64,000 nucleotides of DNA from Gemmatimonadota bacterium (GTDB taxonomy: Bacteria; Gemmatimonadota; Gemmatimonadetes; Gemmatimonadales; GWC2-71-9): contig JBDHJR010000007.1 in assembly GCA_039586815.1 (NCBI GenBank), positions 1,844 through 65,843 on the forward strand. The letters run 5' to 3'. Under the pieces are notes generated by a model. The model was not told where the DNA came from and did no database searches. It saw nothing but the letters and a program-made list of their open reading frames with translations. Both the position numbers and the translations under genes were made by a program. Shown here one piece after another: positions 2,786 to 10,028 of this stretch (positions are counted from its first letter, which is position 1; each line of letters starts with the position of its first letter).

Positions 2786-2992
2786 CTAGAAGATCCGGCA
2801 GACCGCCGTACGGATCATGTAGCAGTAACCGCGCGCGGCGGCGAGATAGACGTCCCTCGTCGGGAAGTCGCGGTCGCACGACTCGAGCGAACCCAGCATG
2901 CATGCCACCGTATGCCACGCGTCGGCGGGTCTCGGATTGGGTAACATCCCCAGGGTACCTGCCAGCAGTACTGCAAAGATCAGTCGTTTCAT
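2786..2992 (-). CDS. Small secreted cysteine-containing protein (68 aa)
   Basis: MKRLIFAVLLAGTLGMLPNPRPADA... is a classic signal peptide. The mature ~43 aa carry 4 Cys. A GAGGAGG Shine-Dalgarno sequence lies ~6 nt upstream of the ATG (reverse complement of 2999-3005). It is the first gene of the 2992->344 operon. Confidence 0.5.
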   Translation of the reverse strand: MKRLIFAVLLAGTLGMLPNPRPADAWHTVACMLGSLESCDRDFPTRDVYLAAARGYCYMIRTAVCRIF

Positions 2993-3179
2993 GGCTCGTC
3001 CTCCTCGCCGATCAGGCTGTGAGGACGAGTGTGGGGCTGAGCGCGCCCCCAGGTGTGATCGTTCCGTTGCCCCGACGCGCCGATGCTTGCACGGCGGAGC
3101 TCCTCGCCGGGGTGAAGCGCAAACGGGGCGACGGATCGAATCCGTCGCCCCGCAACAGAGGACCGCGCTGCGAGAAGCG

Positions 3180-4313
3180 CTACCCTTCGGGAGCAGTATC
3201 CACGGTGATCACCTTGCGCTCACCGGTAGTCTGCACCAGCACGGCGCTGGGTGCGCGGAACACGTCCTGCTCGCCGTAGATCTCGCCGAACAGGATGTGG
3301 CGCGTCACCACCATGAGCGAGGCCAGCGTTGGAACGGCCACGATCAACCCCAGCACACCCATGAGGTAGGCCATCACCAGCACGCTGCAAATGGTGAGCA
3401 CCGGGGGAAGGCTCACCCGCTTCTCGAAGATCAGCGGTGCGACCACGTTCGCCTCCACCAGGTGCACTCCGATGCCCAGCCCCAGCACCGCAACGGCGTG
3501 CGGCCAGCTGCTGATCGTGAGGATGAGGAGCGCTGGCAGAATGGTGGAGGTGATGGTGCCGAAGAACGGCACGATGACGACTACACCGGTGAACACGCCG
3601 AACGCCAGGACGTAGGGTACCTGCAGCACCCACAGCCCGATCGCGGTGAGCACTCCGAGCACCAGCATGGCGAACAGCTGCGCCCAGATCCAGGTGCGGA
3701 TGGTCTCGCCCAGATCGGCCAGCGTCGTGCGGGCCACGTGCCGGAACTGAGGCGGCACCAGCGAGATCATGCCCTCGCGGTACTCCCCGGGGTTGCGCGC
3801 CATGTAGATGGCCATGGCCATGACGCTCACCAGCTCGACCGCGAGCTTGCCCCCCGCGGTCAGGTACGGCAACAGCGATCCGCGCACGAACGTGGTCGCG
3901 TCGTCGATCAGGGTCTGCACCGCGCCGCCGCCCTCGGCACCGAGCACGGTTCCCTCGAGGACCGGATAGCGCTCGGCCCACTGGGCCATGATGCCCTCCA
4001 GGTCCTGGGCGTAGCGCGGCAGCGCGGCCACCAGGTCCTGCACCTGCTCCACCAGCGGCGGCAGGATGAGCCAGCCGGTGCCGACGGCAGCCGCGAGCGT
4101 CAGCATGATCGCCGCCGTCAGCGCCAGGGCGCGGCGCAGGCGAAAGCGACGCACCAGGAAGTCCGTGACGGCCGAGAGGTAGACGGAGAAGATCGCCGCG
4201 ATGAACAGCAGCACGACGACCTCGGAGACGCGCCCGAGGAAGAGGAAAAGAAGCGCGGCGACGAACAGAACTACGAGCGTCGCCGCGAGACCCCGCCAAC
4301 CGTCCATGCTCAT
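3180..4313 (-). CDS. AI-2E family transporter (PerM/YhhT-like, UPF0118)
   Basis: 377 aa with ~8 TM helices. The layout and sequence blocks are typical of AI-2E/PerM permeases (…FIAAIFSVYLSAVTDFLVRRF…, …GIGVHLVEANVVAPLIFEKRVSLPPVLT…). Its start codon overlaps the pspA stop at 4313. Confidence 0.8.
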   Translation of the reverse strand: MSMDGWRGLAATLVVLFVAALLFLFLGRVSEVVVLLFIAAIFSVYLSAVTDFLVRRFRLRRALALTAAIMLTLAAAVGTGWLILPPLVEQVQDLVAALPRYAQDLEGIMAQWAERYPVLEGTVLGAEGGGAVQTLIDDATTFVRGSLLPYLTAGGKLAVELVSVMAMAIYMARNPGEYREGMISLVPPQFRHVARTTLADLGETIRTWIWAQLFAMLVLGVLTAIGLWVLQVPYVLAFGVFTGVVVIVPFFGTITSTILPALLILTISSWPHAVAVLGLGIGVHLVEANVVAPLIFEKRVSLPPVLTICSVLVMAYLMGVLGLIVAVPTLASLMVVTRHILFGEIYGEQDVFRAPSAVLVQTTGERKVITVDTAPEG

Positions 4314-5089
4314 CAGCTCCCTTTGCTCACATCGTCATCCTCGACGAGCTCGGCGTCGGAAACCTCGCTGTCCTCGCCGTCGGTGAGCTGGGGACGATCC
4401 TCCGATTCGCCCGGCCCCAGCACCCCCATCTTGCGCTTGAGCTCGAGTAGCTGGTTGTCGGCGCTGCCATGGAACTCGAGTGCCTCGAACTGCGATTGCA
4501 GCGTGTCGCCCTCCAGCTCGCCAGCCAGCTCCGTTGCCGCCACCGCCTGGCGCTCCATGTCCTCGATCTTCTCTTCCATGCGCCGGAAGCTCTCGAACGC
4601 ACTCTTGTCGGACATGGCGGACATCGTCTCCTGGATCCGGCCCTGCGCCTCGACCCGCCGCTGCCGCGCCACGAGGAGGTTCTTCTTGCGCTTGGCGTCC
4701 TCGATCTTCTCGTTCAGCTCGCGCAGCGACGCCTTGAGGCTCTCCACGTCGGCCTTGTGTTTCACCCATGTGTCGTGCATCTGCTGCGCGGATTGCAGAT
4801 GCTCGTTGTGCCGCAACAGGGCCTGCTTGGCGAGATCGTCCCGCCCCTCCTGCACCGCCAGCATCGCGCGCCGCTCCCAGTCTTCGGCCGCCTTCTTCTC
4901 CTTCTCGACCTGTGCCTGGAGTTTCTTCTCATCGGCGATTGCGGCCGCGACCTCCTGCTTCGTCTTCGCGAGCTGCCCCCGCATCTCGACGAGCAGCTGA
5001 TCCAGGACCTTCTCCGGATCCTCCGCCCGCCCGATCAGAGCGTTGATGTTGGCTTTGATGACCGTTGCCAGACGCTGGAAAATGCCCAT
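4313..5089 (-). CDS. pspA: Phage shock protein A / IM30 family
   Basis: MGIFQRLATVIKANINALIGRAEDPEKVLDQLLVEMRGQLAKTKQEVAAAIADEKKL… is the canonical PspA/IM30 N-terminus with long coiled coils. The C-terminal tail is acidic. Confidence 0.9.
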   Translation of the reverse strand: MGIFQRLATVIKANINALIGRAEDPEKVLDQLLVEMRGQLAKTKQEVAAAIADEKKLQAQVEKEKKAAEDWERRAMLAVQEGRDDLAKQALLRHNEHLQSAQQMHDTWVKHKADVESLKASLRELNEKIEDAKRKKNLLVARQRRVEAQGRIQETMSAMSDKSAFESFRRMEEKIEDMERQAVAATELAGELEGDTLQSQFEALEFHGSADNQLLELKRKMGVLGPGESEDRPQLTDGEDSEVSDAELVEDDDVSKGS

Positions 5090-5269
5090 TTCGAAATCAC
5101 CCCTCCCGATACGGCGTCTATGGGAGCCGACGCAAACCGCACGCGATCACGGCGTGAAGTAAGCTAAAGATTTACGATTCGGCGCCACCGCGCCACCAGC
5201 CCTCGATACCGGCGCGGCGTCCTGCCTGTGGTACGCCTGGCGCCAGCGGAATGTTTCATTTATGAACGC

Positions 5270-5560
5270 TCAGCCGTCCCCCTGAGGCAGGCGCGGTGCG
5301 TCGCGGCCCCTCGCCATGAGCCGCTCGGCGAAGTCGAGCCGCTCCTGCACCTCGCCGAGCTCCTGCCGCAGCGCCTCGATCTCGTCGAGCAGCGCCATCT
5401 GGGAATCCTCGATCTGGCGGGCCAGGCCATCGGGCACGTGCTTCCCGGAACCCCTGATCCTGTCTGCCACGGCCTTCCCCACGGGGGATATCGCGAGCAG
5501 GAAGAGCGAACCGCCCCCGAAGATGAACGTGACCGCCACGATGTCGAGAATGCCTTCCAT
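5270..5560 (-). CDS. PspB-like single-pass membrane mini-protein, paralog 6 of 6
   Basis: MEGILDIVAVTFIFGGGSLFLLAI… (TM helix) …EIEALRQELGEVQERLDFAERLMARGRDAPRLPQGDG. Confidence 0.7.
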   Translation of the reverse strand: MEGILDIVAVTFIFGGGSLFLLAISPVGKAVADRIRGSGKHVPDGLARQIEDSQMALLDEIEALRQELGEVQERLDFAERLMARGRDAPRLPQGDG

Positions 5561-5565
5561 CTATG

Positions 5566-5841
5566 TCAGTGCCCCTTGGGAAGCTCCTCGTGCTTCTTTT
5601 GAGTGAGCACTCGCTCAGTGAAATCTAGCCGCTCCTCGACCTCCGTCAGCCGGAGATCGACTTCGTCCATCGCATCCAACCTGGCCCTGAGCTCATCGAT
5701 CTCGCCGCGCAGCGTGTCGTCTCCTCCGCGCGGCGTTCCCGCTCCCTTGCCCTCCATCCTGCGGACCGTGGCCTTTACGATTGGCAGCCCCAGCACGCAG
5801 GCGGTGATCGTCGCAGCGATGACAACCAGGTCGTAGTCCAC
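5566..5841 (-). CDS. PspB-like single-pass membrane mini-protein, paralog 5 of 6
   Basis: MDYDLVVIAATITACVLGLPIV… …EIDELRARLDAMDEVDLRLTEVEERLDFTERVLTQKKHEELPKGH. Confidence 0.7.
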   Translation of the reverse strand: MDYDLVVIAATITACVLGLPIVKATVRRMEGKGAGTPRGGDDTLRGEIDELRARLDAMDEVDLRLTEVEERLDFTERVLTQKKHEELPKGH

Positions 5842-5842
5842 G

Positions 5843-6136
5843 TCAGGCCCCCGGCGCCAAACGGTCCCGCTCGCGCTGCTGGGTCATGACCCGCTCGGCG
5901 AAATCGACCCGTTCCTCGAGCTCCTGCACGCGGCCGGCGACGTCCTCGAGCCCCGCGACACGGTCCTCCAGACGGGCCAGGTCGGCCCGCACGTCGTCCG
6001 CATTGGGCAATCCCTTGCGGCCATAATGCACATCCACCCAGTGGCGCACCGTGCGTCCCAGGGTGACCATGACCACGACACCCGTAGCCATCCCTGCGAT
6101 CGGGATGACGATGTTGGCGACGGCCCACGGATCCAT
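5843..6136 (-). CDS. PspB-like single-pass membrane mini-protein, paralog 4 of 6
   Basis: MDPWAVANIVIPIAGMATGVVVMVTLG… …LARLEDRVAGLEDVAGRVQELEERVDFAERVMTQQRERDRLAPGA. Confidence 0.7.
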   Translation of the reverse strand: MDPWAVANIVIPIAGMATGVVVMVTLGRTVRHWVDVHYGRKGLPNADDVRADLARLEDRVAGLEDVAGRVQELEERVDFAERVMTQQRERDRLAPGA

Positions 6137-6140
6137 ACCG

Positions 6141-6434
6141 CTATGTCCCGGGCGGCAGCCCGTCCCGCTCCCGCTGTTGTGTGAGCACCCGCTCGGTAAA
6201 GTCCACCCGCTCCTCCAAGTCGTGCAGCCGGTAGCTCTGCTCCTCGAGCGCTTCCACCCGCGCCCTCAACTGCTCGACCTCGGCAGAGCCGGCACCGCCG
6301 TGCAGCGCTTCGCGCTCCTGCTTGCGGTCGATCAGGCGGTTCGCGGTGCGGTAGATGCCGTACAGGACGCCCGCTCCCATTGCCATCCCGATGAGCGGGA
6401 AGACAACCTCCTGAATCCACAGCCAATCGGGCAT
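6141..6434 (-). CDS. PspB-like single-pass membrane mini-protein, paralog 3 of 6
   Basis: MPDWLWIQEVVFPLIGMAMGAGVLYGIY… …VEQLRARVEALEEQSYRLHDLEERVDFTERVLTQQRERDGLPPGT. Confidence 0.7.
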   Translation of the reverse strand: MPDWLWIQEVVFPLIGMAMGAGVLYGIYRTANRLIDRKQEREALHGGAGSAEVEQLRARVEALEEQSYRLHDLEERVDFTERVLTQQRERDGLPPGT

Positions 6435-6437
6435 ACG

Positions 6438-6707
6438 CTACTCCCCCGGGGGGAGCTGGCCTGTCTGATTGTGCCGCGCCAGCACCCGCTCGGTGAAGTC
6501 CTGCCGCTCCTCCAGCTCGGTCAGACGCCAGCGCAGATCCTCGACCTCACCCCGCAGCGCCTCCGCATCGGCGGAGTGCTCCAGCTCGCCATGCCGTCCG
6601 GCGATCCGCTCGCCGATCGCCTTGCCCAGCGGGCCACGGAAGATCAGGACGGCTCCGACGGTGAGAAACAGAGAGATGGGCACCAGGAATGGCGCGATCT
6701 CGTGCAT
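6438..6707 (-). CDS. PspB-like single-pass membrane mini-protein, paralog 2 of 6
   Basis: MHEIAPFLVPISLFLTVGAVLIF… …ALRGEVEDLRWRLTELEERQDFTERVLARHNQTGQLPPGE. Confidence 0.7.
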   Translation of the reverse strand: MHEIAPFLVPISLFLTVGAVLIFRGPLGKAIGERIAGRHGELEHSADAEALRGEVEDLRWRLTELEERQDFTERVLARHNQTGQLPPGE

Positions 6708-6710
6708 GGG

Positions 6711-6974
6711 CTACTCCCCCTCTCCCAGGCGCTGCGGGTCGCGCTGGCTGGTCAGCATGCGCTCGGTGAAGTCCACGCGCTCGTGCAGCTCCGACACCTC
6801 TGACGCGAGCTGCGTGATGGCATTCCGCAGCTCGTGTGCCTCAGCGGGCCCGAGGCTCGGCTTGGGTCTGCTCCACCGCTTGAGCAACGCGGCAGCCGTG
6901 ACACCCACTATCGTGAAGGCACCGAACGCGCCGATGACGATCGAAACGCCTATGCCTATCTCGATGGGATCCAC
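6711..6974 (-). CDS. PspB-like single-pass membrane mini-protein, paralog 1 of 6
   Basis: MDPIEIGIGVSIVIGAFGAFTIVGVTAAALL… …ELRNAITQLASEVSELHERVDFTERMLTSQRDPQRLGEGE. Confidence 0.7.
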   Translation of the reverse strand: MDPIEIGIGVSIVIGAFGAFTIVGVTAAALLKRWSRPKPSLGPAEAHELRNAITQLASEVSELHERVDFTERMLTSQRDPQRLGEGE

Positions 6975-7066
6975 GCCACCCCCGTTCGATTCCGACCCAC
7001 CGTACGGGCCGCTGTTTCAAAAAGTGTCACCTGTTCCGCAGAATTAATAGCCCTCGGCCAGGGAAG

Positions 7067-9910
7067 TCATTCGCGCAACAGCGGCCCCAGAAACTTCGCC
7101 GTGTGCGACTTCGAAACCCGGACCACCTTTTCGGGTGGACCTTCGGCCACCACCGCGCCACCGGCTTCGCCACCCTCCGGCCCCAGGTCGACGATCCAGT
7201 CGGCCGTCTTCACGACCTCCATGTTGTGCTCGATCACGATCACGGTGTTGCCTTTGTCCACCAGGCGGTGCAGCACCTCGAGCAGCAGCCGCACGTCCTC
7301 GAAATGCAGGCCGGTCGTGGGCTCGTCCAGGATGTACAGCGTACGGCCGGTATCGCGCTTGCTGAGCTCCGTGGCGAGCTTCACCCGCTGGGCCTCTCCG
7401 CCGGAGAGGGTCGTTGCGCTCTGCCCCAGGTGTATGTAGCCGAGGCCGACGTCGTTCAGCAGCTCGAGACGGTTGCGGATGCGGGGCTGCTGCTCGAAGA
7501 ACTCCAGCGCGTCGGCCACGGTCATGTCGAGCACGTCCGCGATCGACTTGCCGCGGTAGCGCACCTCCAGCGTCTCCCGGTTGTAACGCCGTCCCTTGCA
7601 CACGTCGCACGGCACGTACACGTCGGGCAGGAAGTGCATCTCGATCTTGACGAGGCCGTCCCCCTGGCACGACTCGCAGCGGCCCCCCTTCACGTTGAAC
7701 GAGAACCGACCCGGGCCATAGCCCCTCAGCTTGGACTCGGGGAGCTGGGCGTAGAGCTCGCGGATTGGCGTGAAGAGCCCCGTATACGTAGCCGGGTTCG
7801 AGCGGGGCGTGCGCCCGATCGGACTTTGATCAATGTCCAGGACCTTGTCGACGTGCTCGACTCCCTGCAGCACGTCGTGCTCGCCGGGCACCAGCTTGGC
7901 GCGGTACAGGTGCCGAGCCAGGGCATGGTACAGGATGTCGGTCACCAGGGTGGACTTTCCGGAACCGGATACGCCGGTGACCGCCACGAACAGTCCCAGG
8001 GGGAACTCCACGTCGAGGTTCTTCAGGTTGTGCTGCCGGGCGCCCACCACGCGGACGGCCCTCCCCGGAGATCCCTTGCGCCGTGCGGCGGGCACCACGA
8101 TGCGCAGCTCGCCTCGCAGATACCGCCCGGTGAGCGACGTGTCGTGGCGCAGCACGTCCTCCAGTCCGCCCTCGGCCACTACCTCCCCACCGTCGCGCCC
8201 CGCACGGGGACCGAGATCGATCACGTGATCGGCGGCCCGGACGGTGTCGGCATCGTGCTCCACGACCAGCACCGTGTTGCCCAGGTCCCGCAGGCCACGG
8301 AGTGTGCTGAGCAGCCGCCCATTGTCGCGGGGGTGGAGTCCCACCGAGGGCTCATCCAGCACGTAGAGCACGCCCACAAGGCGACTGCCGATCTGGGTGG
8401 CCAGGCGGATGCGCTGCGCCTCCCCCCCCGATAGGGACGACGCCGAGCGTCCCAGTGTGAGATAGGCCAGCCCCACGTCGCACAGGAAGCGGAGCCGCTC
8501 CGTCACCTCCTTGAGGATCGGGCCGGCGATCTCCCGCTCGACCGACTCGCTCCCGCCGTTGCCGCCCAACGAGAGCTCCTCGAAGAACCGCAGCGCGCCA
8601 TCCACCGCGAGGTCCACCACCTCACCGATCCCCTTTCCCCCCACTAGCACGCTCAGGCTCTCGGCCTTGAGCCGGTGGCCCCCGCAGCTCTCACATGCCT
8701 CGTCCACCATGAAGTCGCCGATCTGCACCCGCACCGAGTCCGACCTCGTCTGGTGGTAGCGCCGCTCCACGTTGCCGAGGATCCCCTCCCACTCCGCCTC
8801 GTAGTCCTGCCCCGTGCCGCGGGAGCCGCTAAACCGGAAGGTGCGGCCCGGCACTCCGTGGAGCAGCGCCTGCCGAGCCCGGTCGGGGAGGTCGCCCCAC
8901 GGGGCCGACAGGTCGAACTCCAGCTCCTTGGCCAACGTGGGGAGCACCACGTTCTTCAAGTAGCCCCGCGGCTCGCCCCAGGGGAGCACTACGCCCTCGA
9001 GCAGCGAGATCCGGTGGTCGCCCAGCACCAGGCCGGGGCTCACCACGCGCCGCACCCCGAGCCCGCCGCAGTCGGTGCACGCTCCGTAGGGCGAGTTGAA
9101 CGAGAACTGCCGTGGCTCGAGCTCGGCCAAGGAGTAGCCGCACTCCGGACATGCGAACCGCTCCGAGAAGAGGACGCTCTTCGACTCCTTGCCGTGCCGC
9201 ACCACTTCCACGAGACCATCGGCGGCACGCAGCGCCGTCTCGATGGAGTCGTGCAACCGCCCGCGGTCGGACTGCCGCACCGCCATGCGGTCCACCACGA
9301 GACCGATGTCGTGGTTGACGCGACGATTCAGCTTCGGTGGCGTGCTCAGGTCGTGCACCGCACCGTCCACCCGCACGCGCACGAAGCCCTGGCGACGGGC
9401 GCTCTCGAACAGGTCCTTGAACCCGCCCTTGCGGCCGCGCACCAGGGGCGCGATGAGCTCGATCTTGGTCCCCGCACGCCAACTCAGCACGGTGTCGGCT
9501 ATCTCAGAGGCGCTCTGTCGGCTGATGGGGGAGCCGTCGTTTGGACAATGGGGCGTGCCAACCCGGGCCCATAGGAGCCGCAGGTAATCGTAGATCTCGG
9601 TCACCGTGCCGACGGTGGAGCGCGGGTTGTGCCCGGGGGCCTTCTGCTCGATGGAGATTGCCGGAGAGAGCCCCTCGATGGCGTCGACGTCGGGCTTCTC
9701 CATGAGGCCGAGGAACTGGCGGGCGTAGGCGGACAGCGACTCGACGTAGCGCCGCTGTCCCTCGGCATAGATGGTGTCGAAGGCCAGCGACGACTTGCCC
9801 GATCCCGAGAGCCCCGTGATCACCGTGAGCCGGTTCCGGGGGATCTCCACGTCTATGTTCTTGAGGTTGTGTACCCGCGCGCCGCGGACCACGAGGTCTT
9901 CGTTCGGCAT
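7067..9910 (-). CDS. uvrA: Excinuclease ABC subunit A
   Basis: [66 protein letters not shown]… has two ABC modules (GLSGSGKSS and GVSGSGKST), zinc-finger Cys pairs and the LSGGEAQR signature twice. The track ORF starts 19 codons upstream at 9967. I prefer the ATG at 9910 because it matches the conserved UvrA N-terminus. Confidence 0.95.
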
Positions 9911-10028
9911 AGCCTTGGAACGTACCCGAGCCCCGGGCAGCCGGTCAATCCGCCGATTGTGACGCAAATCGCTTGCGGCCCCCTCCGGGCCATCGTAGTT
10001 TGACCCTCCCTACCTCCGGTGCGATGCC

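Follow-up and report, generated by a model that had tools for sequence, protein, structure and literature searches.

What are the six small open reading frames (ORFs) that stand in tandem upstream of pspA in a member of the Gemmatimonadota, and what might they have to do with PspA? The locus lies in a 64,000-nt stretch of Gemmatimonadota bacterium (assembly GCA_039586815.1, contig JBDHJR010000007.1, positions 1,844 to 65,843 of the forward strand), the whole of which we call the window. An earlier note on this DNA had described six consecutive ORFs of 87–97 amino acids (aa) separated by gaps of 1–5 nt, and had suggested that they may be a multiplied and diversified set of PspB-like membrane proteins. 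The layout was borne out, with gaps of 3, 3, 4, 1 and 5 nt. The six paralogues are given below with their transmembrane (TM) and motif features, their score against a hidden Markov model (HMM) of the family, and their identity to the orthologue in L001, the closest array among the loci that we retrieved (all numbered with the prefix L) and our reference for substitution rates.

6711–6974 (−): paralogue 1, 87 aa, GTG start; TM helix, basic linker, cytoplasmic helix with HERVDFTERML (motif codons 6760–6782), tail RLGEGE; family HMM 64 bits; L001 orthologue 76% identical
6438–6707 (−): paralogue 2, 89 aa; EERQDFTERVL (6487–6509), tail QLPPGE; 112 bits; 90% identical
6141–6434 (−): paralogue 3, 97 aa; EERVDFTERVL (6190–6212), tail GLPPGT; 128 bits; 90% identical
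5843–6136 (−): paralogue 4, 97 aa; EERVDFAERVM (5892–5914), tail RLAPGA; 117 bits; 91% identical
5566–5841 (−): paralogue 5, 91 aa, GTG start; EERLDFTERVL (5612–5634), tail ELPKGH; 77 bits; 71% identical
5270–5560 (−): paralogue 6, 96 aa, of the SPVGKAVADRIR subtype; QERLDFAERLM (5322–5344), tail RLPQGDG; 93 bits; 77% identical

The six ORFs are real, constrained genes, because against their positional orthologues in L001 the ratio of nonsynonymous to synonymous substitution rates (dN/dS) was only 0.141 over 551 codons (dS 0.68), and because G+C content at third codon positions (GC3, 0.78–0.89) was well above that at second positions (GC2, 0.40–0.47). These values effectively refute untranslated ORFs, which the earlier note had named beforehand as speaking against its reading. 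Its observation that the GGGGAG encoding the end of one protein doubles as the Shine-Dalgarno sequence of the next cistron held at both of the junctions that it named: these read GGGGAG-TAGCCC-ATG and GGGGAG-TAGCGT-ATG, with the codons that end paralogues 1 and 2 lying 6 nt before the next ATG. Across related arrays the commonest intercistronic distances were −4 nt (51 cases), 3 nt (21) and −1 nt (19), a signature of translational coupling.

What the paralogues share is a short stretch of protein. Ten columns are invariant in the six-copy alignment (M1, L49, E65, R66, D68, F69, E71, R72, L83 and G86); across 119 family sequences R66, D68, F69, E71, R72 and L83 are invariant, and E65, R33 and L49 nearly so. 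The block E(E/H)R(V/L)DF(T/A)ER(V/L)(L/M), as first proposed, is indeed near-invariant but was drawn slightly too narrowly, its first position being E, H or Q and one copy reading ERQDF. The back-translated motif pattern, GARCGNNNNGAYTTYRCNGARCG, had six matches in the 64 kb, one in each ORF, where 0.00 were expected (100 shuffles). Conservation is at the level of protein, because the motif codons vary synonymously among copies (GAC/GAT, TTC/TTT, GAG/GAA, CGG/CGC) and Tandem Repeats Finder detected no DNA-level repeat.

Every copy has a single hydrophobic segment of 19 residues (mean Kyte-Doolittle hydropathy 1.8–2.4), with an acidic flank on the N-terminal side (net −1 to −2) and with 3–5 lysines and arginines in the 15 residues past it. 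By the positive-inside rule, these flank charges predict that the six proteins are single-pass, with the N-terminus outside and the C-terminus cytoplasmic; the one N-terminal TM helix per copy that had been proposed is thus upheld. In the 119 sequences a proline near the start of the TM helix was found in 86%, glycine recurred at alternate TM positions, and the hydrophobic residues of the second helix were spaced 3–4 apart, confirming the heptad-like region also described earlier. AlphaFold2, run on paralogue 1 with the 119-sequence alignment, gave helices at residues 3–35 and 43–78 and a disordered tail, with a mean predicted local distance difference test score (pLDDT) of 86, rising to ~98 over residues 51–70 of the second helix. 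The g–e′ pairing (i to i′+5) is the classic interhelical pair of parallel coiled coils, and setting V/L67 at heptad position a would place R66 at g and E71 at e, which fits such a pair, and would leave F69 exposed.

Identity among the six paralogues was 19% in the N-terminal part (TM helix and linker) and 43% in the C-terminal part (helix and tail). That the N-terminal halves have diverged and the C-terminal block has not, as claimed in the earlier note, is thus correct among paralogues; between orthologues, however, purifying selection is similar in the two halves (dN/dS against L001 of 0.157 for the N-terminal and 0.126 for the C-terminal half), and the N-terminal divergence is ancient only.

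The arrays themselves are old sets of distinct, individually retained paralogues and not recent amplifications, because the nearest relatives of their members mostly sit in other genomes. Against the identities to same-position L001 copies listed above (71–91%), the window copies were 27–43% identical to the other L001 copies, and positional correspondence was still visible for several copies in L003–L007, at 45–69% identity. For 326 of the 333 array members, from 61 loci, the nearest relative was in another genome, bearing out the diversified set that had been suspected; median identity was 58% to the nearest member in other genomes vs. 37% within the same array, and only six of the 333 had a same-array relative at ≥60% identity. 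Single-linkage clustering of the array members chained them all into one cluster, so that no orthogroups were defined. The SPVGKAVADRIR subtype represented by paralogue 6 was widespread in other arrays, with orthologues in L004 and L060.

How widely is the family distributed? A profile built from the six copies retrieved 3,153 proteins (E ≤ 1e-3, 90%-clustered database), all labelled hypothetical, essentially none with a Pfam domain, and every named organism among them a member of Gemmatimonadota. An exhaustive HMMER search of 50%-identity representatives gave 3,115 clusters at E ≤ 1e-3 and 673 at E ≤ 1e-10, and neither Pfam nor NCBIfam holds a model for the family. In an exact-pattern DNA scan of one genome per species for 185,579 species, 76 of the 80 loci among the matches listed were labelled Gemmatimonadota, Longimicrobiales included; the other four were one Spirochaetia locus without a family match, one contig labelled Miltoncostaeaceae and two unclassified metagenome-assembled genomes (MAGs). 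By these sequence searches the family is almost confined to Gemmatimonadota. The Miltoncostaeaceae (Actinomycetota) contig, CAVORO010000003.1 (1.5 Mb; L011/L115), carries a typical Gemmatimonadota uvrA-array-pspA-AI-2E block, and the label of this MAG is probably wrong. Three proteins of the representative library with two or three family modules (P0265, P0276 and P0254) were considered as natural fusions and set aside, as they look like frameshifted read-throughs from one array gene into the next in low-quality assemblies. A degenerate member of ~70–80 aa, which keeps the TM helix and a GPIGKAxARWIE hinge and has no invariant motif, adjoins the pspA-proximal end of some large arrays, in four loci (L036, L050 and L054, where it lies in the gap between the array and a CesT_Tir gene, and L158 at 1366–1572).

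Array and pspA are linked in a manner close to obligate in both directions. Among the first 80 loci (L001–L080; array clustering threshold 400 nt), 50 arrays had pspA on the same strand no more than 703 nt downstream, 14 of these within 31 nt, and all of the multi-copy arrays without pspA were explained by a contig end or by a clustering split, excepting the three-copy array of L046. In a motif-based sample of 118 loci, drawn independently of similarity to paralogue 1, pspA lay directly downstream of 45 of the 48 evaluable multi-copy arrays, vs. one of the 46 evaluable single copies. Conversely, starting from the window PspA, we found the family immediately upstream in 29 of the 30 Gemmatimonadota pspA loci that extended 1.5 kb or more upstream, with at least two copies in 28; a family copy was found in none of the 17 pspA loci from Cyanobacteria, Chloroflexota, Poribacteria, Kineococcus and one unclassified MAG. 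The linkage of an ERxDFxER family to pspA, which the earlier note had proposed for checking in other genomes, thus proved stronger than the window sequence alone showed. The closest genome was CP070716.1, with a PspA 93% identical and six copies. One Gemmatimonadota pspA locus (L230, JAEUJL010000054.1; PspA 59% identical) had 6 kb upstream and no family copy, the only such case; array loss or a paralogous pspA may account for it.

The intergenic distance between array and pspA differed among lineages, being 1–30 nt in some and in others holding a CesT_Tir_1 gene. In ~25 related Gemmatimonadota loci, among them those of many Gemmatimonadales, this gene (PF22550, E = 8e-26; ~130 aa) occupied a 375–703-nt gap between array and pspA (L055 at 8612–9035; also, e.g., L021, L023, L027, L051 and L059); the window has in that place a 180-nt spacer and no CesT/Tir gene. 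CesT/Tir has been described as a PspA partner forming a CesT/Tir-PspA dyad (Ravi et al. 2024, PMC11237479). The ~25 loci resemble that dyad in having CesT_Tir_1 directly upstream of pspA, and they differ in that the array precedes it, the dyad as described having no single-pass array. The surroundings of the array in the window are as follows.

5090–5269 (−): spacer between array and pspA, 180 nt
4313–5089 (−): pspA; its 258-aa product, of the PspA/IM30 family, is an ESCRT-III-like remodeller of membranes whose C-terminal tail is acidic
3180–4313 (−): AI-2E family transporter (PF01594, E = 2.2e-57)
6975–7066 (−): spacer between uvrA and paralogue 1, 92 nt, where the array promoter is presumed to lie
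7067–9967 (−): uvrA, a conserved upstream flank of the array, by synteny only and with no functional link implied

The succession of a 180-nt gap, pspA and an AI-2E permease, as first described, is therefore sound. The window PspA matched PF04012 (E = 1.3e-43) and TIGR02977 (E = 7e-42, under its equivalog cut-off), and E. coli PspA by phmmer (2.2e-19). Its stop codon shares 1 nt, at 4313, with the start of the transporter gene, and many related loci have the same pspA-AI-2E pair, an indication that translation of PspA may be coupled to that of the transporter. The 180-nt spacer opens with a perfect palindrome, TTCATAAATGAA (5266–5255), which directly follows the paralogue 6 stop codon, and closes, just 5′ of the pspA start, with the Shine-Dalgarno sequence GGGAGGGG; it is strongly conserved relative to L001, and this conservation is gone in more distant loci. 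It may be the site of a pspA promoter or operator, with the palindrome as a candidate element. A scan for sigma-70-like promoters and terminators found none beyond shuffle expectation and left the 180-nt spacer with neither a promoter nor a convincing terminator; the sole signal in the 92-nt spacer was a weak terminator-like hairpin at 7060–7048. Rfam gave no match in the whole 64-kb window. Two long antisense ORFs, 2898–5000 (+) (700 aa, over pspA and the transporter gene) and 6051–6803 (+) (250 aa, over the array), are by-products of the 65–67% G+C content and could mislead automatic gene callers.

The likeness to PspB is real in architecture and falls short in sequence. Both are proteins of ~75–100 aa, bitopic with the N-terminus out and the C-terminus in, with a proline near the TM start, a basic juxtamembrane segment, a cytoplasmic helix of the pattern L..L...R(I/V)..LE..LD and a gene beside pspA. 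They differ in that E-R-x-D-F-x-E-R and LPxG stand where PspB has ILDAE-P-WR, that the family comes in 2–14 copies upstream of pspA and PspB in one or two downstream, that one occurs in Gemmatimonadota and the other in Proteobacteria, and that neither pspC nor pspF was found near the array. PspB has been described as rare outside Proteobacteria, and duplicates of it and fusions to PspC as occasional (PMC11237479, PMC9239133). The best PspB score of any window copy was 18.6 bits (TIGR02976, E = 0.0017), vs. a 51.7-bit cut-off, and PF06667 was absent from their Pfam matches even at E ≤ 10. When 119 family members were compared with PspB models, E < 1 was reached by 24 in Pfam (best PF06667, E = 0.015) and 41 in NCBIfam and the curated threshold by none; the family consensus had no PspB match in either scan. 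PspB TIGR02976 and PspC TIGR02978 were nonetheless the most frequently matched NCBIfam models, all below threshold (41 and 30 of the 119 members). The PspB signature LE-ILDAE-P-WR, in which E67 and W71 are invariant and P69 nearly so, is absent from the family alignment; the family continues its helix with D-F-(T/A)-E-R-(V/L)-L and ends in LPxG, without AE-P-W. Single-sequence phmmer searches, which are of limited sensitivity, were made of the window and ~200 related loci: E. coli and Aeromonas PspC gave no match at E < 0.01, and E. coli PspF gave one, in an unrelated singleton locus.

Profile comparison was more favorable. We assembled a diverse PspB profile of 34 sequences from Enterobacterales, Aeromonas and more distant gammaproteobacterial clusters, plasmid tblastn having returned almost only Enterobacterales; it superseded a shallow Enterobacterales alignment, a weak profile with which hhalign had given 44%. 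Against the diverse profile hhalign gave 85.5% locally over 27 columns and 87.9% globally over 79 columns, the global alignment superposing the TM prolines and the LE..LD segments of family and PspB. A reversed profile gave 3.9%, and none of 150 column shuffles reached the real score. Heptad-block permutations, however, scored 27.5 ± 3.7 vs. 36.4 for the real alignment (2.4 standard deviations), one of 119 reaching it; that is, about three quarters of the score is generic heptad or coiled-coil signal. The PspB-like label therefore keeps its architecture, topology and pspA linkage and loses the curated thresholds, the C-terminal signature and the pspC/pspF context; likewise, the profile check against PF06667 proposed with it fell below all cut-offs, the hhalign values being its favorable, mostly heptad-derived, part. 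As PspB is defined at present, these proteins fall outside that family. A remote common ancestry with it is plausible but unproven, and from the sequences we judge it about evenly balanced.

Other candidate identities were compared as well. PspC (PF04024/TIGR02978) likewise joins a TM helix to a leucine-zipper-like helix in the cytoplasm, but the family lacks the N-terminal amphipathic PspC region; the best TIGR02978 match of a window paralogue had E = 0.00088 over model positions 41–111, far under the 104-bit cut-off, and no PF04024 PspC domain was among the Pfam matches listed. LiaI of Bacillus subtilis (liaIH) is a functional analogy, being a small membrane protein encoded directly upstream of, and co-oriented with, a pspA homologue and the proposed anchor or recruiter of that homologue (LiaH) at the membrane (PMC11237479). 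LiaI is nonetheless a single-copy, multi-TM protein of the LiaI-LiaF-TM domain under LiaRS control, whereas the array proteins are single-pass; the Pfam matches listed for the window copies, and the 25 families matched most often by the 119 members, did not include LiaI-LiaF-TM/DUF2157, and we saw no two-component system beside the array. In gene order, small anchor gene or genes and then pspA, the array by analogy resembles liaI-liaH more closely than pspA-pspB-pspC. Pfam and NCBIfam scans of the six copies, the 119 members and the consensus yielded nothing above threshold; the matches were to families that combine a TM helix with a coiled coil, among them RIC3, TraQ, MtrG, GspM and TolA_bind_tri, and were regarded as likeness of architecture and composition. 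The idea that the F-x-G-P-x-G-K-A-I hinge of paralogues 2 and 6 is TatA-like was dropped, with no TatA among the Pfam matches listed for any copy or among the 25 families most often matched by the 119 members. A precursor of a bacteriocin or of another ribosomally synthesized and post-translationally modified peptide (RiPP) was rejected, with no modification genes, with the conserved part C-terminal and with an N-terminus that is a TM anchor. A sequence search of the PDB returned only coiled-coil look-alikes (E > 0.06), and Foldseek of the AlphaFold2 model against the PDB nothing at E < 6.

Membrane partners of PspA are known in model organisms: PspB and PspC in E. coli, LiaI in Bacillus and PspM in mycobacteria. 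We think there is about an even chance that the arrays encode partners of this kind, that is, Gemmatimonadota-specific, possibly PspB-derived, membrane partners or anchors of PspA that oligomerise through their shared helix; for the functional part of this claim the evidence is genomic context throughout. Under this proposal the tightly coupled cistrons would be co-translated in comparable amounts. The shared cytoplasmic helices would associate as a coiled coil, with R66 (g) and E71 (e) positioned for an interhelical salt bridge, and the TM helices, with their many small residues, could pack against each other as well, so that the distinct paralogues would form mixed oligomers in the membrane. 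The invariant exposed D68, F69 and R72, with the LPxG tail, would then offer a common docking surface to recruit, nucleate or regulate the ESCRT-III-like PspA polymer at the inner membrane face, assisted by the CesT/Tir-type chaperone where one is encoded between array and pspA. A bolder version, which we offer tentatively and regard as rather less than probable, is a multi-subunit PspA membrane receptor in Gemmatimonadota: up to 14 ancient paralogues would hetero-oligomerise through the E-R-x-D-F-x-E-R helix to set where and when PspA polymers nucleate, and the same helix, on singletons and TM2 fusions, would recruit PspA to further sites.

Several observations weigh against the arrays being dedicated partners of PspA, beside the largely generic coiled-coil signal in the PspB comparison. 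Copy number ran from 1 to 12 in the first set of loci and reached 14 in L158, and variation from 1 to 14 speaks against a complex of fixed composition. In the window itself, the 180-nt spacer means that co-transcription of array and pspA is not assured, and the conserved block also holds uvrA and the AI-2E transporter, such that the linkage could be partly inherited gene order. Single copies with the same motif occur elsewhere in Gemmatimonadota genomes, 45 of the 46 singletons in the motif-based sample lying far from pspA, and the single-copy neighborhoods that we examined had no partner gene in common. In Longimicrobiales (L089, L096, L108 and L136) we saw the family only as single copies, with the motif MEERLDFTERL, and the 8-kb loci contained no pspA; arrays of several copies linked to pspA may be a feature of Gemmatimonadales and their relatives only. 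Away from pspA, the motif helix was also found C-terminal to a TM2 domain (PF05154, E = 2.6e-20) and to two-TM proteins with a PWHATxHA N-terminal region (these two kinds together at L032 7800–8195, L018 8320–8655 (−), L039 10687–11034 and L044 10318–10623). Because it occurs on such different anchors, the E-R-x-D-F-x-E-R helix looks like a portable interaction module, one that need not be exclusive to PspA.

The nearest competitor to the proposal of PspA partners or anchors is that these are true, very divergent and multiplied PspB orthologues, acting as stress-sensing regulators that switch PspA between states and not as passive anchors. The common length, topology, TM proline and L..L...R(I/V)..LE..LD helix invite this, as do the hhalign values with their shuffle and permutation controls, the rank of PspB as the most-matched NCBIfam model and the known PspB duplicates in psp operons (PMC11237479). 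We nonetheless see it as the case in only a minority of outcomes: curated thresholds are missed by ~30 bits or more, the consensus has no PspB match, E67, P69 and W71 are absent, the family invariants D-F-x-E-R and LPxG are in turn absent from PspB, no pspC or pspF was found to accompany the array in ~200 loci, and the gene order is reversed. It is unlikely, in our estimate, that the linkage to pspA is mere inherited gene order and that the proteins have a PspA-independent role, for instance in composing or regulating the neighboring AI-2E transporter, or as coiled coils that organise membranes in general. The whole uvrA-array-pspA-AI-2E block is indeed syntenic, uvrA plainly has an unrelated function, there are singletons and fusions away from pspA, and array-pspA spacers are 123–703 nt in most loci, though the 375–703-nt class usually holds CesT_Tir_1. 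Yet the array still adjoins pspA although its distance from uvrA shifts by kilobases and many loci lack AI-2E; only three of 48 multi-copy arrays lie away from pspA, 14 loci have no more than 31 nt before it, and the gene inserted into the gap elsewhere, CesT/Tir, is itself a known PspA partner.

Two further explanations fare worse. Small hydrophobic proteins in arrays of variable copy number, beside membrane-protection and exporter-family genes, might be membrane-perturbing cargo or clients (holin-, toxin- or bacteriocin-like), from which PspA would protect the membrane of the producer. The paralogues, however, are ancient, keep their positions and are under purifying selection from end to end, unlike the rapid turnover of toxins and bacteriocins; modification, immunity and lysis genes are not present, and the acidic N-terminus and positive-inside pattern indicate a stable N-out anchor and not a secreted peptide, all of which makes this quite improbable to us. 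GC-rich DNA does yield many long spurious ORFs, such as the two antisense ones noted above, but the view that the array is an untranslated chance product of such DNA, or a DNA or RNA repeat, is effectively refuted by the dN/dS of 0.14, GC3 far above GC2, ~3,100 homologous clusters, amino acids invariant over synonymous codons and the lack of any DNA repeat or Rfam match.

The earlier note had thought a six-paralogue array upstream of pspA undescribed, and in two broad comparative genomic studies of the Psp system (PMC11237479 and PMC9239133) we found no description of one and no mention of Gemmatimonadota. Full-text searching for literature linking PspA or phage shock with Gemmatimonadetes or Gemmatimonas likewise gave nothing relevant. 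What would be new here is the family, the phylum and the multiplication into arrays; a small membrane partner of PspA is known as a kind.

In all domains of life, membranes are repaired and remodelled by PspA/Vipp1/ESCRT-III proteins; how these are brought to the membrane is, to our knowledge, understood for just a few model bacteria. The arrays add a phylum in which genes for 2–14 small single-pass proteins with one invariant helix almost always stand before pspA, a finding of relevance to researchers on Psp, Vipp1 and ESCRT-III. The family merits a Pfam/NCBIfam model, which would annotate thousands of 'hypothetical proteins' beside pspA. If its members are true PspA partners, they would provide a compact, mutable docking motif for studying PspA recruitment and a case of one anchor grown into a set of paralogues, and they may be a missing link, placing the origin of PspB-like proteins before, and their range beyond, the proteobacterial family.

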